From a virus (taxonomy: Duplodnaviria > Heunggongvirae > Uroviricota > Caudoviricetes): a DNA stretch of 21,917 nt. Positions 8,976 to 11,801 of this stretch are shown one piece after another. The notes under the pieces were generated by a model that was not told the origin of the DNA, did not search any database, and was given only the letters and a program-made list of their open reading frames with translations. Made by a program: the position numbers and the translations under genes. Position 1 is the stretch's first letter. Each line of letters starts with the position of its first letter. The stretch lies in IMG/VR virus record IMGVR_UViG_2751185961_000012, positions 1-21,917 of that record, one strand, 5' to 3'.

Positions 8976-9563
8976 TTAAAAATTATCGCCACCGTACTGC
9001 CAGTAACCCGGGTCGTCCGTGTGATTCGGGTTTGCGTTTTTGCTGCGATTGTCTTTGTCTTTGAGAGTGGAAACCATATTTGCTACCGTTTCTGGTTTCT
9101 TTCCTTCAGCTTTTTCTTTCAGTGTCTGCCCTGTTTCTGCAATGAATGGAATGCGGATTTCCATCTGGTAACTGTCTGCGCCAGTCTTTCTGTTTGTGGT
9201 TAATACTTTCTGGAGCACTAACCCGATTTTCTTTCCGTGAAACTCAGGTGCAACATATTTACTGACGGAAACCATATGTTGCGTTAACTGCCCAATTCCT
9301 GTGCATCCCATCATGGCGTGAATAATGCTCGCCCCAAATTTATTTTCAGTGCCGTCATTCTTCTGAACACAAACACTGAGATATTGGATTTTCCGTCCGT
9401 CGTCGGATTCTCCAGAAAACTCAATGAATCGGGCACCTTTTTCTGATTGCTTGAGTTCTGCTTCGGTGATGTTAATGATATGCGCACCCGTTTCGGTAAT
9501 AAAACCACCTTGTCCGGCGGTTAGTGCTGATTCTTCATTGTAAGTAAAAATTACATCATCCAT
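8976..9563 (-). CDS. Hypothetical phage protein, 195 aa, translationally coupled to exo
   Basis: Start overlaps the exo stop by 8 nt; Gly/Lys-rich; function unknown (single-strand-binding-like role is speculative). Confidence 0.55.
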
Positions 9564-10254
9564 TAGTTATTAACCCCCCCCATTGTTCTCCAAATACAAA
9601 ACCAATTTCCGCCAGTGCTTCGTCCATTTTGTCGATGAACTCCGGCACCATCTCATCAAAACTCGCCATGTACTTTTCATCCCGCTCGACCACGACATAA
9701 TGCAGGCCTTCACGCTTCATACGTGGGTCGTAGTTGGCGAAGTACCAGGCGTCCTTGTCTGTAACCCACATGCTGAATTGCACCTGGGCCATGTAAGCAG
9801 GCTTGATAGCGTCAAAGCCGCCAAGCCGGAACTTCATGAAGTCGCGGGAAGTGAAGGGGCATTTAAGCTCAAGACCGTTACCGTCGCTGCATAAACCGTC
9901 GGGAGAGCAGGCGGTGCGCATGCTTTCGTCACGAAAAATTATTGGCGTTTCCGCGACGGTAACATCCGCGATAAATTCGAAGAGGGCACGGGCATCATCT
10001 TCGTATTGCTTTCCCCATGCGAGCGACTTAGCGTTAACTTCCGGTGCCACGCCAGTACAAACTTCAGCCAGCAGGGTGTGGAAGTATGACATTTTTGTAT
10101 CAGGCCATTTGCTGCCTGAACGTGGTTTGGCTATGACGTTGTGAACTTCTGAAGCAGTGATAACACCGAGTCTCAGCTTGTGCCATCCATCATCGCCCTG
10201 GTCGAGGCTGGTAATATCCACGCCAGTTCGCTGGAGAATAATTTCTGGTGTCAT
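9556..10254 (-). CDS. exo: Lambda-type 5'-3' exonuclease (Red-alpha / YqaJ family)
   Basis: 232-aa protein near-collinear with lambda Exo as recalled ([11 protein letters not shown] ... [28 protein letters not shown] ... [20 protein letters not shown] ... [10 protein letters not shown]); ATGA coupling with the upstream recombinase gene. Confidence 0.9.
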
Positions 10255-11201
10255 GACACGGCCTCGCTGTTATTTTCCGTGGTGGCGTGAACTTTCGCTT
10301 CCGCCGTGGCCTTGTTTCTGGCAGCTTTCTTTTTGACAAAATCAAGCGTTTTGACAGCTTCTTCCTGAGAGAGAGCTTCATGTGATGCAATCGTGCGACG
10401 GAATGTTTTGGAACATACGGGAAGCAGGTCATCCCATGTCTTGTTAATTTCGGTGATTGCCTGAGTGATCTCATTGATAATCTCATCTGATGCGGGAGTG
10501 ACGTCACGCTCAGGGATGTGATCAGCATTCAGGATGATACCTTCACCGGCCTGAGTGTTCAGGTAGTCGATAGCTGTATCCAGGCGATCGCGACGGGGCC
10601 AGTATTTGCTGGCGCGCTTAACAATGGCTTTTCTGGCCATTTCATCGGGGAAACTATCCCACGGGCTACTTCCTCCGTTATTTCCGGCTTTGCTGCACGC
10701 CCTGATGACCTCGATTTCCCTGTTGCTCATCTCTTCGGTCAGATAGTCGCCTTCGGATGTTTTTACGACACAATAACCGCCAATGCGTGCGCCCCTGTCT
10801 ACGAATGGGTTGTATTTGTGCGTGGGGGCGCAGTCAATACCGTTGGACTCGTAAATGTCCTTCTCGTAAACAAGTTTGCATTGCCCCCACTGAATGGCTC
10901 CTGTGACCTGTGCCAGATGCAGAAGCCCCATATAACTGATATCCAGGCATACAGCCTTTTTTCGTGGGACCAGATACGCCAGCTTGCTGGCCGGGTTCAG
11001 GGTTATGCCGATGGCGGCAACATTGATGATAGCGTTCTGTGCGCTGGGCAGATTTGCCCGTGCTGTGTCAGCCAGAAAGGCATTTTTCTGGAATTGCTGA
11101 ATTGCAAACTGACTTTCCTTCGCCCATGTCAGCGTCGGTTCAGTTAATGCCTCGCAGAAAAAGCGCTCCTGCTGCTTAACAAATTCAACGATATCGAACA
11201 T
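10251..11201 (-). CDS. RecT-family single-strand annealing recombinase with lambda Bet-like C-terminal tail
   Basis: Core matches RecT blocks ([37 protein letters not shown]...PW...[16 protein letters not shown]); C-terminal tail ([11 protein letters not shown]...[17 protein letters not shown]...[17 protein letters not shown]) resembles the lambda Bet C-terminus; start set at the ATG with AGGA Shine-Dalgarno (MFDIVEF). Confidence 0.85.
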
Positions 11202-11217
11202 TTTTTGGTCCTGAAAA

Positions 11218-11499
11218 TCAGAAAGGACAGGGGGAGAATTTTCTCTCCCATTCTTCTTCCGCCCGAGCATAGGCGATCGCTGAGATATAATCGTTGTACG
11301 CCTCTTCAGCTTTTTCGCCAGTGAGTGCCAGTTGGGCTTCTTTGGGTAAAAAAAGGCTGCTCATAAGCAATGGTTTATCGGGGAACATGCTGATAAGCTC
11401 CTGCGCCCGATCGTCAATCCATTTATCCTTTTCATCCTGAATGTGCTGATTAACCCAGCGACGCTCCTCTATTCGGTCACAGGTGAGGTATGCGTTCAT
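11218..11499 (-). CDS. Gam-like host-nuclease inhibitor (divergent), 93 aa
   Basis: N-terminus MNAYLTCDRIEERRW parallels the lambda GamS start MNAYYIQDRLEAQSW; located immediately upstream of the recombinase, as gam is in lambda. Confidence 0.5.
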   Translation of the reverse strand: MNAYLTCDRIEERRWVNQHIQDEKDKWIDDRAQELISMFPDKPLLMSSLFLPKEAQLALTGEKAEEAYNDYISAIAYARAEEEWERKFSPCPF

Positions 11500-11519
11500 G
11501 GCGGAACTCCTGATTTCGG

Positions 11520-11801
11520 TTAATGCATTAAATTAATTTGTCGGGAAAGCTGACATACAGGGCAGTTACATTCTTCCTCCTGCTCCTTAGCGAAGAAATA
11601 TGCAGCGGCCTGTAATGCGATGTCTTCTGGATGTTCTGCGATAAACATAACATTGCCTTCCGTATCAATAACAGAAATAGCCTCATCAGACAGGACGACA
11701 AAATAGGCGATGATTTTATCATCCATAAAAACTTCTCCCATTATCGTTCCTGCTGGAGTTACGACGCTTTTTACATTGATATTTATTTTTTGATTGAGCA
11801 T
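11520..11801 (-). CDS. Hypothetical phage protein, 93 aa
   Basis: ORF in the kil/cIII-equivalent position; C-terminal CxxC (CNCPVC); no family recognised. Confidence 0.5.
   Translation of the reverse strand: MLNQKININVKSVVTPAGTIMGEVFMDDKIIAYFVVLSDEAISVIDTEGNVMFIAEHPEDIALQAAAYFFAKEQEEECNCPVCQLSRQINLMH

Follow-up and report, generated by a model that had tools for sequence, protein, structure and literature searches.

A phi80-type recombination module with a RecT-type annealing core, a Bet-type C-terminal domain and a lambda-type exonuclease in a Stx-phage-like prophage sequence

Among the closest described relatives of the locus analyzed here is the orthologous exo-rec-gamL gene set of phage phi80 (Lula; NC_021190), where recombination between phage and prophage on diverged sequences drops strongly when recT is deleted (PMC3945230). 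SAP sequence type 4 is found together with Exo and GamL in phi80 and with SSB-2 in phage TL-2011c (PMC12315714). A further point of reference is the Red system of lambda (exo-bet-gam), in which the C-terminal domain (CTD) of Bet binds helix E of Exo, the same pocket being used by the C-terminal tail of SSB (PMC6393309; for SSB also PDB 8TFU), and in which mutating L91 or F94 of Exo, or L223 or F249 of Bet, abolishes the complex (PMC6393309). Heterotypic pairs of Exo and annealase fail in double-stranded DNA recombination (PMC5052646), and partner specificity of this kind limits the mixing of phage recombinases for dsDNA recombineering. That domains resembling the Red-beta CTD have been shuffled from one annealase family to another has been suggested earlier (PMC8093625).

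In the stretch of viral DNA studied (21,917 nt, hereafter the window), three genes encoding an exonuclease, an annealase and GamL fill the interval 9556-11499 on the minus strand, as the first-pass annotation, which had placed an Exo, annealing protein and Gam module there, anticipated. We read the locus as a phi80-type, Red-like module of a lambdoid (Stx-phage-like) prophage, whose products are GamL, an annealase with two domains, an Exo of lambda type and an SSB-like protein, and, taken jointly with the mechanism and the evolutionary course proposed below, this reading is considered probable (roughly 0.8). The recombination trio is of the phi80/Shiga-toxin-phage type, ordinary and catalogued earlier. 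It is 98-100% identical over the whole 1944 bp to that of many Stx-converting phages, such as TL-2011c, Lyz12581Vzw and PhiR12_3, which carry the same flanking ssb-like gene and differ only in the length of a G-run at the 3' end of exo and in the annotated start codon. The novelty implied by the initial description was thus overstated, the module being catalogued as SAP-4 with Exo, GamL and SSB-2 (PMC12315714); widespread among the Stx phages of E. coli and present in phi80, it represents no new kind of system. Phi80 shares gene order and families with the window (Exo 82%, Rec 55% over the full length, GamL 74% identity), and its Rec likewise consists of a RecT core and a Bet-like tail. The cores of the window and of phi80 fall into different deep RecT clades, that of the window being closer to the cores of mEpX1 and E212 (66-76%). 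The window tail lies further from that of lambda (54% versus 78% for phi80), and its annealase is extended by 16 aa at the C-terminus. Unlike phi80, the window has no Mog/agt gene upstream of gamL, and its exo is followed by an ssb-like gene.

The product of exo (9556-10254, minus strand, 232 aa) aligns with lambda Exo collinearly and without gaps over 225 aa (88% identity, E 4e-160), in agreement with the earlier remark that it is near-collinear with lambda Red-alpha, and its score against the Pfam YqaJ model PF09588 (100.3 bits) places it in the lambda exonuclease (PD-(D/E)XK) family. In this alignment D119, E129 and K131, which we take to be the catalytic triad of lambda Exo, are all unchanged, as are R28, R45 and L78. 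The latter three residues have DNA-handling roles in lambda Exo (PMC11611040). Directly after exo lies the ssb-like gene (8976-9563, minus strand, 195 aa), which matched phrog_743, 'single strand DNA binding protein', at E 6e-68 and gave no match in Pfam and NCBIfam searches. It is found 3' of exo in most Stx-type loci with a flank long enough to include this position, and it belongs to the co-inherited block with exo.

At the other end of the module, gamL (11218-11499, minus strand, 93 aa) encodes a predicted phi80-type inhibitor of the host nuclease RecBCD. The protein matches the NCBIfam equivalog model NF033500 (phi80_GamL) with 147.9 bits (cutoff 40) over residues 1-88 of the 89-position model, phrog_1050 at E 1.7e-48 and GamL of phi80 itself at 74% identity, so that the "divergent Gam" recognized at first reading is GamL. 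Its weak resemblance to lambda Gam is confined to the first 21 aa, the counterpart in lambda Gam starting at Met41; GamL 'may bind RecBCD like Gam' (PMC12315714).

The annealase gene, here called rec, occupies positions 10251-11201 of the minus strand and encodes a predicted two-domain single-strand annealing protein of 316 aa (phrog_148 RecT-like, E 3e-95). The mechanically delimited ORF is longer (10251-11270, 339 aa), its upstream surplus overlapping gamL and not being conserved. The ATG at 11201 is almost certainly the start: it is provided with an AGGA ribosome-binding site, lies 16 nt past the gamL stop, and yields the 316-aa length of the NCBI 'recombinase RecT' protein P0001 (831 member sequences). 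The 339-aa form was rejected as the protein on these grounds. At the opposite end, the stop codon (10251-10253) and the ATG of exo share bases in an ATGA arrangement, as in lambda, with which the window also shares gene order, a homologous annealase CTD, and the N-terminus and start region of Gam; it differs from lambda Red in the RecT-type, not Bet-type, annealing core and in the GamL type of Gam. Four parts can be distinguished along the protein: a RecT-type annealing core (aa 1-215; 10557-11201), a flexible linker (aa 216-231; 10509-10556) with pLDDT below 50 for residues 215-231, a Red-beta (Bet)-type three-helix domain (aa about 232-300; 10302-10508), putatively the Exo- and SSB-docking module, and, where the model ends with low pLDDT, a 16-aa C-terminal extension (10254-10301) that is peculiar to the Stx-phage lineage and missing from lambda, phi80 and other relatives in the alignments.

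The core was identified as RecT-type rather than Bet-type, as had been proposed, by several comparisons. Among NCBIfam models the annealase passes TIGR00616 rect (66.5 bits, cutoff 52.65) and shows no match to TIGR01913 bet_lambda at E <= 0.1, while lambda Bet matches only bet_lambda (169.5 bits). The Pfam model PF03837, which the first-pass annotation had put forward for separating the two, was rejected as a discriminator: the annealase scores 86.7 bits (cutoff 24), but lambda Bet itself scores 115.6 bits, and therefore this model cannot tell RecT from Bet. The alignment with Rac RecT is limited to the core (residues 56-202, 33% identity, E 7e-20). In an AF2 model, run without the phi80 and mEpX1 rows, the core reached a pLDDT of about 87, and the best Foldseek match of this predicted structure was Listeria RecT (7UB2, E 1.8e-6), with no match to Red-beta's N-terminal domain; in the hhalign profile comparison, nothing aligned to Bet residues 1-139. 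Judged by family models and predicted fold, the protein may be counted as a RecT-subfamily single-strand annealing protein, its annealing activity being a prediction. With Rac RecET it shares the subfamily of the core and a partial match to NF007351, but the partner nuclease is a lambda-type Exo, not RecE, and the tail is unrelated to the C-terminus of Rac RecT. RecE was rejected as partner nuclease, relatives of its C-terminal domain being found in none of the related loci examined.

The C-terminal part tells a different story from the core. In BLASTP against lambda Bet it alone aligns (residues 201-323 of the 339-aa ORF to Bet 140-261, 43% identity, E 1e-23), the hhalign comparison returned the same C-terminal-only alignment, and the tail as such is 54% identical to the lambda Bet CTD. 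The only solved structures matched by the annealase sequence were Red-beta CTD chains (8TFU and 6M9K, E 2e-18), and the modeled tail superimposes on the 6M9K domain with 0.9 Å rmsd and TM 0.91, i.e., as a three-helix domain. The resemblance of the C-terminal 60 aa to Bet, claimed from the outset, is thus real, but its placement had to be corrected to residues about 225-300 of 316, followed by the 16-aa extension.

The surface of Exo equivalent to that bound by the lambda Bet CTD (PMC6393309) is helix E (aa 83-96; 9967-10008, minus strand). Within this region Q83, D87, L91 and F94 are kept, and T90A and T95I are changed. On the tail side, F311 (corresponding to F249) and K315 (corresponding to the capping K253; both in 339-aa-ORF numbering) are kept together with Exo L91 and F94 as critical contacts, while L223 is replaced by V. 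Among the nine listed contact residues of the CTD, four carry non-conservative (Q226K, I227T, Q252K, E256R) and two conservative (L223V, L250V) substitutions. By analogy with the lambda structure, the tail presumably docks on the neighboring Exo and would define its partner specificity. Conservation of F249 and K253 could also reflect SSB binding, since the lambda pocket accommodates SSB as well.

Where the two parts of the annealase meet, the linker contains a clear junction: similarity to mEpX1-type proteins stops there, and similarity to the lambda Bet tail starts at an 11-residue stretch, so that the protein is not simply a Bet-family or RecT-family member throughout, the finding that would have counted against the proposed chimera. 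The closest cores (66-76%; for mEpX1, 66% over residues 1-234) belong to RecT plus Mu-Gam modules of the mEpX1/E212/HK140 type, which differ from the window in having a tail unrelated in sequence, a Mu-Gam-like gene downstream and no exonuclease gene, mEpX1 and E212 themselves being examples. Junctions are also visible in DNA. Between phi80 and lambda, nucleotide homology takes in exo and the 3'-terminal 212 nt of the gene for the annealase, and it ends where linker and CTD meet, at about residue 186 of Bet. Up to codon about 198, the E. coli contig L167 matches E212 at 98% identity; beyond the crossover it follows the window, at 94-100% identity across the CTD, exo and ssb (about 97-100% in the ssb-like gene). 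The crossover falls within codons about 198-210 (about 10572-10610 of the window), in the last part of the core and shortly before the linker. L167 represents a recent natural recombination between core and tail-exo. Between the window and lambda, DNA identity in exo is 81% and ends exactly at the exo ATG, and within the tail no homology was found at blastn sensitivity; a recent exchange with lambda itself was therefore rejected. Because tail and Exo are 54% and 88% identical, respectively, to their lambda counterparts and the homology stops at the exo start, the two have at times moved independently.

The distribution of the tail was followed in 160 related loci, which are phylogenetically non-independent: all 72 RecT ORFs whose tail is Bet-like, 70 being full-length, have a lambda-type exo directly downstream, and loci combining the same core with another tail have a Mu-Gam-like gene instead (53/53); counted as 90% core clusters, these become 19 and 5, respectively. 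The locus table contains no Mu-Gam-type locus with a Bet-like tail. Pairwise identities of tail and Exo are strongly correlated (rho 0.89), those of core and Exo (0.35) and of core and tail (0.30) far less so; the Exo and tail trees are concordant, and both are at odds with that of the core. Tail and Exo come in three types (lambda-like, Morganella-like and Yersinia-like), which are set apart by the residues at the interface known from lambda, and each of them occurs in both deep core clades. A search with the tail only against a 50%-identity representative library gave 21 matches, mostly fragments, deletions or fusions of lambda Bet, probably constructs or artefacts; an ERF-core chimera (P0129) was its one useful match. 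In Rouxiella, Serratia fonticola and Photorhabdus, ERF-core proteins with a Bet-like tail adjoin YqaJ-type exo genes, as read from the gene context of P0142, P0144 and P0152, relatives of P0129.

It might be argued that no swap took place, the CTD being ancestral to the RecT/Red-beta superfamily and evolving more slowly than the core on account of conserved partners. Pfam indeed treats Bet and RecT as a single family, many RecT proteins have weakly Bet-like tails, and the 'other' tails of L129 and L048 are faintly similar. However, even profile comparison detects no similarity of the core to Bet, whereas the tails are 43-78% identical, the tail/Exo types are scattered over both core clades, breakpoints at the domain boundary are seen at the nucleotide level (phi80/lambda, L167), the same tail sits on ERF cores, and the incongruent trees and the L167 recombinant contradict this account, which makes it very improbable. 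The linker junction, the co-occurrence, the incongruent trees and L167 argue for the domain swap supposed at the first reading, and the annealase is a tidy case of domain shuffling.

What keeps tail and Exo together is a separate matter. Conserved stretches near the linker may merely supply homology for recombination, with joint travel of tail and exo resulting from linkage and not from selection for partner matching. The L167 crossover at the highly conserved VKRASKYWP motif, the conservation of ERD(I/V)TP over all tail types and the separate homology break at the window exo start agree with such neutral mosaicism, and linkage alone would give much co-inheritance because the tail coding region adjoins exo. 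Against it, interface residues change type-specifically and in a matched manner on both partners, Bet-like-tail RecT without exo and Mu-Gam-type loci with a Bet-like tail are lacking in the locus table, and heterotypic pairs fail, as mentioned above. Considering these facts, we regard linkage alone as an unlikely explanation, and presume that selection for partner matching contributes to keeping tail and Exo together.

Enterobacterial SSB C-tails are highly conserved. This bears on a further alternative, according to which the main ligand of the tail is the SSB of the host, or else DNA, bound in the manner of a small helix-turn-helix, and the link of the tail with exo is incidental. The dual use of the lambda CTD pocket (PMC6393309; PDB 8TFU) and the description of such domains as DNA-binding and HTH-like (PMC8093625) speak for it; nevertheless, because the SSB C-tails are so conserved, SSB binding leaves the three divergent, Exo-tracking tail types unexplained, and same-core proteins without an exo partner have a different tail. 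We find this alternative hardly credible.

Our preferred reading, that of a phi80-type, Red-like module with a swapped tail, suggests the following course of events. GamL would disable RecBCD, and the Exo trimer would resect DNA ends in the 5' to 3' direction; the C-terminal three-helix domain of the annealase would dock onto Exo helix E and thereby load the N-terminal, RecT-type core onto the 3' overhang as it emerges, the same pocket of the CTD probably also binding the SSB C-terminal tail, as in lambda. In evolutionary terms, the C-terminal domain and exo would form one exchangeable cassette, which recombination in or just before the linker may have joined to the two deep RecT clades, to lambda Bet and to ERF-family cores.

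A bolder version of this proposal can be put forward only tentatively, and we consider it somewhat doubtful as a whole: the CTD and lambda-type Exo might together form an adaptor cassette that is portable, comes in three or more mutually orthogonal specificity classes (the lambda-like, Morganella-like and Yersinia-like ones) and has repeatedly been plugged onto unrelated cores (the two RecT clades, Bet and ERF), with I227T in the tail and T95I in Exo as a candidate compensatory interface pair in the window lineage. If this were true, the partner specificity of phage recombinases would reside almost entirely in about 70 residues and one Exo helix, and tail swapping could be used to build orthogonal recombineering pairs. 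The locus and its relatives offer natural evidence for specificity that may travel with a small C-terminal domain and the adjacent exo, independently of the annealing core.

The module at positions 9556-11499 consists of three co-oriented genes on the minus strand: exo (9556-10254; 232 aa, lambda Exo family), the annealase ORF (10251-11270; 339 aa as listed) and gamL (11218-11499; 93 aa), followed downstream of exo by an ssb-like gene (8976-9563, phrog_743) and preceded by a 93-aa ORF, kil and an antirepressor gene. Its 1944 bp are 98-99% identical across many Stx-converting and other E. coli phages. The near-collinearity of Exo with lambda Red-alpha, claimed in the first-pass annotation, was confirmed by a gap-free alignment of 225 residues with 88% identity, in which R28, R45, L78, D119, E129 and K131 are all the same as in lambda. 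At the nucleotide level exo is 81% identical to its lambda counterpart, the homology stopping precisely at the exo ATG, and, as in lambda, the annealase stop overlaps the exo start (ATGA). Besides the red-module homology, the sole nucleotide match of the lambda red region in the window was a weak one (68% over 143 nt) between positions 1368-1510 and the orf61/orf63 region downstream of lambda exo. At the 3' end of exo (9575-9582) the G-run following CAATG ranges from 4 to 8 G in otherwise near-identical relatives, resulting in Exo C-termini at 226-232 aa and a shifted overlap with the ssb-like gene, with only residues past W225 touched; this variation could be slippage or sequencing error.

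The 23 initial codons of the 339-aa annealase ORF overlap gamL and are unconserved. The ATG at 11201, located 16 nt past the gamL stop and provided with an AGGA ribosome-binding site, gives a 316-aa protein (numbering used below) corresponding to the NCBI entry 'recombinase RecT [Escherichia coli]', under which 831 member sequences are grouped. In the record of phage TL-2011c (L004 3932-4951) the deposited annotation is likewise the 339-aa ORF overlapping gamL, and the conserved start bearing the ribosome-binding site yields 316 aa.

Five independent comparisons concur that the annealase is a chimera. In BLASTP, lambda Bet aligned with the C-terminal part alone (residues 201-323 of the 339-aa ORF to Bet 140-261; 43%, E 1e-23), and Rac RecT with residues 56-202 of the 316-aa protein alone (33%, E 7e-20), so the proposed pairwise check assigned each reference protein to one part only. 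A profile of 42 relatives aligned to Bet 140-260 only, at positions 175-296, with no alignment to Bet 1-139. Within NCBIfam the annealase belongs to TIGR00616 (rect) and has no match to bet_lambda, the only family matched by lambda Bet; the core is therefore of RecT rather than Bet type, as had been noticed. In the suggested HMM check NCBIfam separated the two families, while Pfam was rejected for this purpose, since PF03837 matches lambda Bet too. The solved structures matched by sequence were only chains 8TFU and 6M9K from the C-terminal domain (CTD) of Red-beta (E 2e-18). An AlphaFold2 model (mean pLDDT 79.7) predicted a confident core (1-215) and three C-terminal helices, connected by a disordered linker (215-231, pLDDT <50); its best Foldseek match was Listeria RecT 7UB2 (E 1.8e-6), followed by the Red-beta CTD chains 6M9K and 8TFU (rmsd 0.6-0.9 Å, TM 0.87-0.94, 51-53% identity). 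The reported resemblance of the tail to the Bet C-terminus stood, but not its placement at the last 60 aa: the Bet-like segment spans residues ~225-300, and a lineage-specific extension makes up the final 16 residues.

Phage phi80 carries the same trio (exo 82%, rec 55% and gamL 74% identical to the window), with a tail 74-78% identical to that of lambda. Nucleotide homology between phi80 and lambda comprises exo and the final 212 nt of rec, ending at Bet residue ~186, that is, at the linker/CTD boundary. Phages mEpX1 and E212 possess cores nearer to the window than that of phi80 (73-76% by tblastn; the mEpX1 protein is 66% identical over residues 1-234), but an unrelated tail, no exo and a Mu-Gam-like gene downstream. 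Both arrangements meet in an annealase gene of E. coli GCA_050515605.1 (locus L167, 4001-4939; also L168). Its product, P0003, shows 100% identity with P0112, a protein of the Mu-Gam type, up to ~residue 180, and past ~residue 210 matches the window protein near-exactly. The DNA is 98% identical to E212 up to RecT codon ~198; its identity to the window is 67-84% in codons 1-180, 94-100% between codon ~211 and the end of the tail, and 100% over most of exo and the ssb-like gene, where a single 90-nt bin stands at 91%. The crossover corresponds to window coordinates ~10572-10610, at the conserved VKRASKYWP motif. Judged by these identity breaks, the gene is a recent natural recombinant in which E212-type upstream DNA and core meet window-type tail, exo and ssb-like gene at codon ~200. 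The ssb-like protein, co-inherited here with tail and exo, ends in ...YGGDNF and has no match in Pfam or NCBIfam; its terminal Phe might mimic the SSB tail to which the Red-beta CTD binds.

The association of tail and Exo was surveyed in 160 loci with core alignment (80 from species-representative genomes and 80 from IMG/VR), all ORFs being classed by iterated HMMs and a tail being termed Bet-like when detected by the lambda CTD alone. A lambda-Exo-family gene lay directly downstream of all 72 RecT ORFs (70 full-length) with a Bet-like tail, usually with a 4-nt overlap; the same core with an alternative tail (53 loci) was directly followed by a Mu-Gam-like gene, with exo absent. The surveyed loci are related and the counts are not independent events; as 90% core clusters they amount to 19 and 5, respectively. 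Two ~1.9-kb contigs from Micromonospora and Streptomyces assemblies (L011, L012), carrying an enterobacterial-type RecT (60% identical) and a Mu-Gam-like gene, look like contamination rather than genuine actinomycete genes. Among 22 representatives, tail identity correlated with Exo identity (Spearman rho 0.89) far more closely than core identity did with Exo (0.35) or tail (0.30) identity. Neighbour-joining trees of Exo and tail (no bootstrap support) agreed on three clades (lambda-like, Morganella-like and Yersinia-like). All three are represented in each of the two deep clades of the core tree, a distribution implying at least three exchanges.

In lambda, Exo helix E (T90, L91, F94, T95) enters a CTD pocket (L223, I227, F249, L250) and is capped by K253, while L91, F94, L223 and F249 are each required for complex formation (Caldwell et al., PMC6393309). 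The window keeps Exo L91 and F94 and tail F249 and K253; V replaces L223, the tail further carries Q226K, I227T, L250V, Q252K and E256R, and helix E carries T90A and T95I. Tails of the lambda-like type have L, V or I at 223, I at 227 (L in one, T in the window) and F249, and their Exo has T, A or S at 90, L at 91 (V or T in two) and T at 95 (I in the window, V in one). The Morganella-like type combines tail F/Y223, K/R227 and M249 with Exo M90, T91 and Y95, and the Yersinia-like type tail A223, L/M227 and S249 with Exo F/L/M90, L91 and E95. At the level of aligned residues, the three types thus differ at interface positions in matched fashion on both partners. Tail T227 with Exo I95 occurred in the window alone among the 22 RecT-locus representatives. 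Linkage alone could account for much of the tail-exo co-inheritance. The window also shows that the histories of the two can differ, since identity to lambda is 88% for Exo but just 54% for the tail, and the homology breaks off at the exo ATG. Selection for partner matching between tail and Exo is nevertheless favoured, because the residues at the interface change by type and in step on both partners, no mismatched tail/partner architecture was found among the 160 loci, and dsDNA recombination fails with heterotypic Exo/annealase pairs, as published (PMC5052646).

The same tail was also found on a third type of core, that of ERF proteins. A tail-alone search of a 50%-identity representative library returned 21 clusters, mostly lambda Bet fragments or deletion/fusion products; entries such as P0122, P0125 and P0136, in which the tail of lambda Bet is joined to Gam, to an internally deleted Bet N-terminus or to unrelated leaders, probably represent engineered Red constructs or artefacts of assembly in the public databases. 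One of the clusters, P0129, has, behind a Pfam ERF core (82 bits), a tail with 60% identity to the lambda one, and 15 of its relatives, from sources including Rouxiella, Serratia fonticola, Winslowiella, Erwinia, Xenorhabdus and Photorhabdus, have lambda-type tails (44-66%). In 3/3 genomes examined, Rouxiella (L169 3001-4430, with GamL upstream), S. fonticola (L170 2865-4488) and Photorhabdus (two copies in one genome, L171/L172 3001-4435), the next gene is a 226-227-aa YqaJ-type exo 67-71% identical to lambda Exo, and the tails retain L223, I227, F249, L250 and K253. The S. fonticola locus shares Exo I95 with the window but keeps tail I227.

The description of gamL as a divergent Gam was borne out: its likeness to lambda Gam is confined to 21 N-terminal residues, and it matches NF033500 (phi80_GamL) at equivalog level (148 bits, cutoff 40). 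Positions 11489-11513 (gamL ribosome-binding site and start) share 23/25 nt with lambda gam at its internal GamS start (Met41). Whether seeded with Gam or GamL, iterated HMMs reach one common protein set (40 shared), and, depending on the locus, one or the other type occupies the slot upstream of RecT. The phi80 record labels gamL 'toxic without Mog', with a 322-aa Mog/agt gene immediately upstream (L005 7844-8812); the window has no Mog homologue and instead carries, between gamL and kil, the 93-aa ORF (11520-11801, phrog_1635, function unassigned). By homology with lambda Red, GamL would block RecBCD, the Exo trimer would resect the DNA end, and docking of the tail on Exo helix E would load the RecT-type core onto the 3' overhang; the SSB C-tail is probably bound in this tail pocket as well (cf. 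PDB 8TFU).

The module is already known and widespread, the general idea of such chimeras is known too, and novelty is low. The phi80 protein was called 'RecT-phi80', its relation to Red-beta being mentioned only as 32% identity, and deletion of its gene strongly decreased phage-prophage recombination on diverged sequences (PMC3945230); SAP sequence type 4 was reported for phi80, beside Exo and GamL, and for TL-2011c, beside SSB-2 (PMC12315714), and varied RecT C-terminal bundles have been described (PMC13490951). The earlier statement that significant sequence homologues of the CTD are lacking (Caldwell 2019, PMC6393309) no longer holds. In the papers searched, we found no explicit description of co-variation between tail and Exo, and none of the three types of interface, of the recent recombinant L167, or of close sequence-level lambda-type tails on ERF cores beside lambda-type exo. 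Taken together, the chimeric annealase is confirmed, and its interpretation as a natural domain swap is supported by the junctions, the tail-Exo co-variation and the recombinant, with a tail that presumably binds Exo. The value of the finding is modest, as a natural guide for engineering Exo/annealase specificity.
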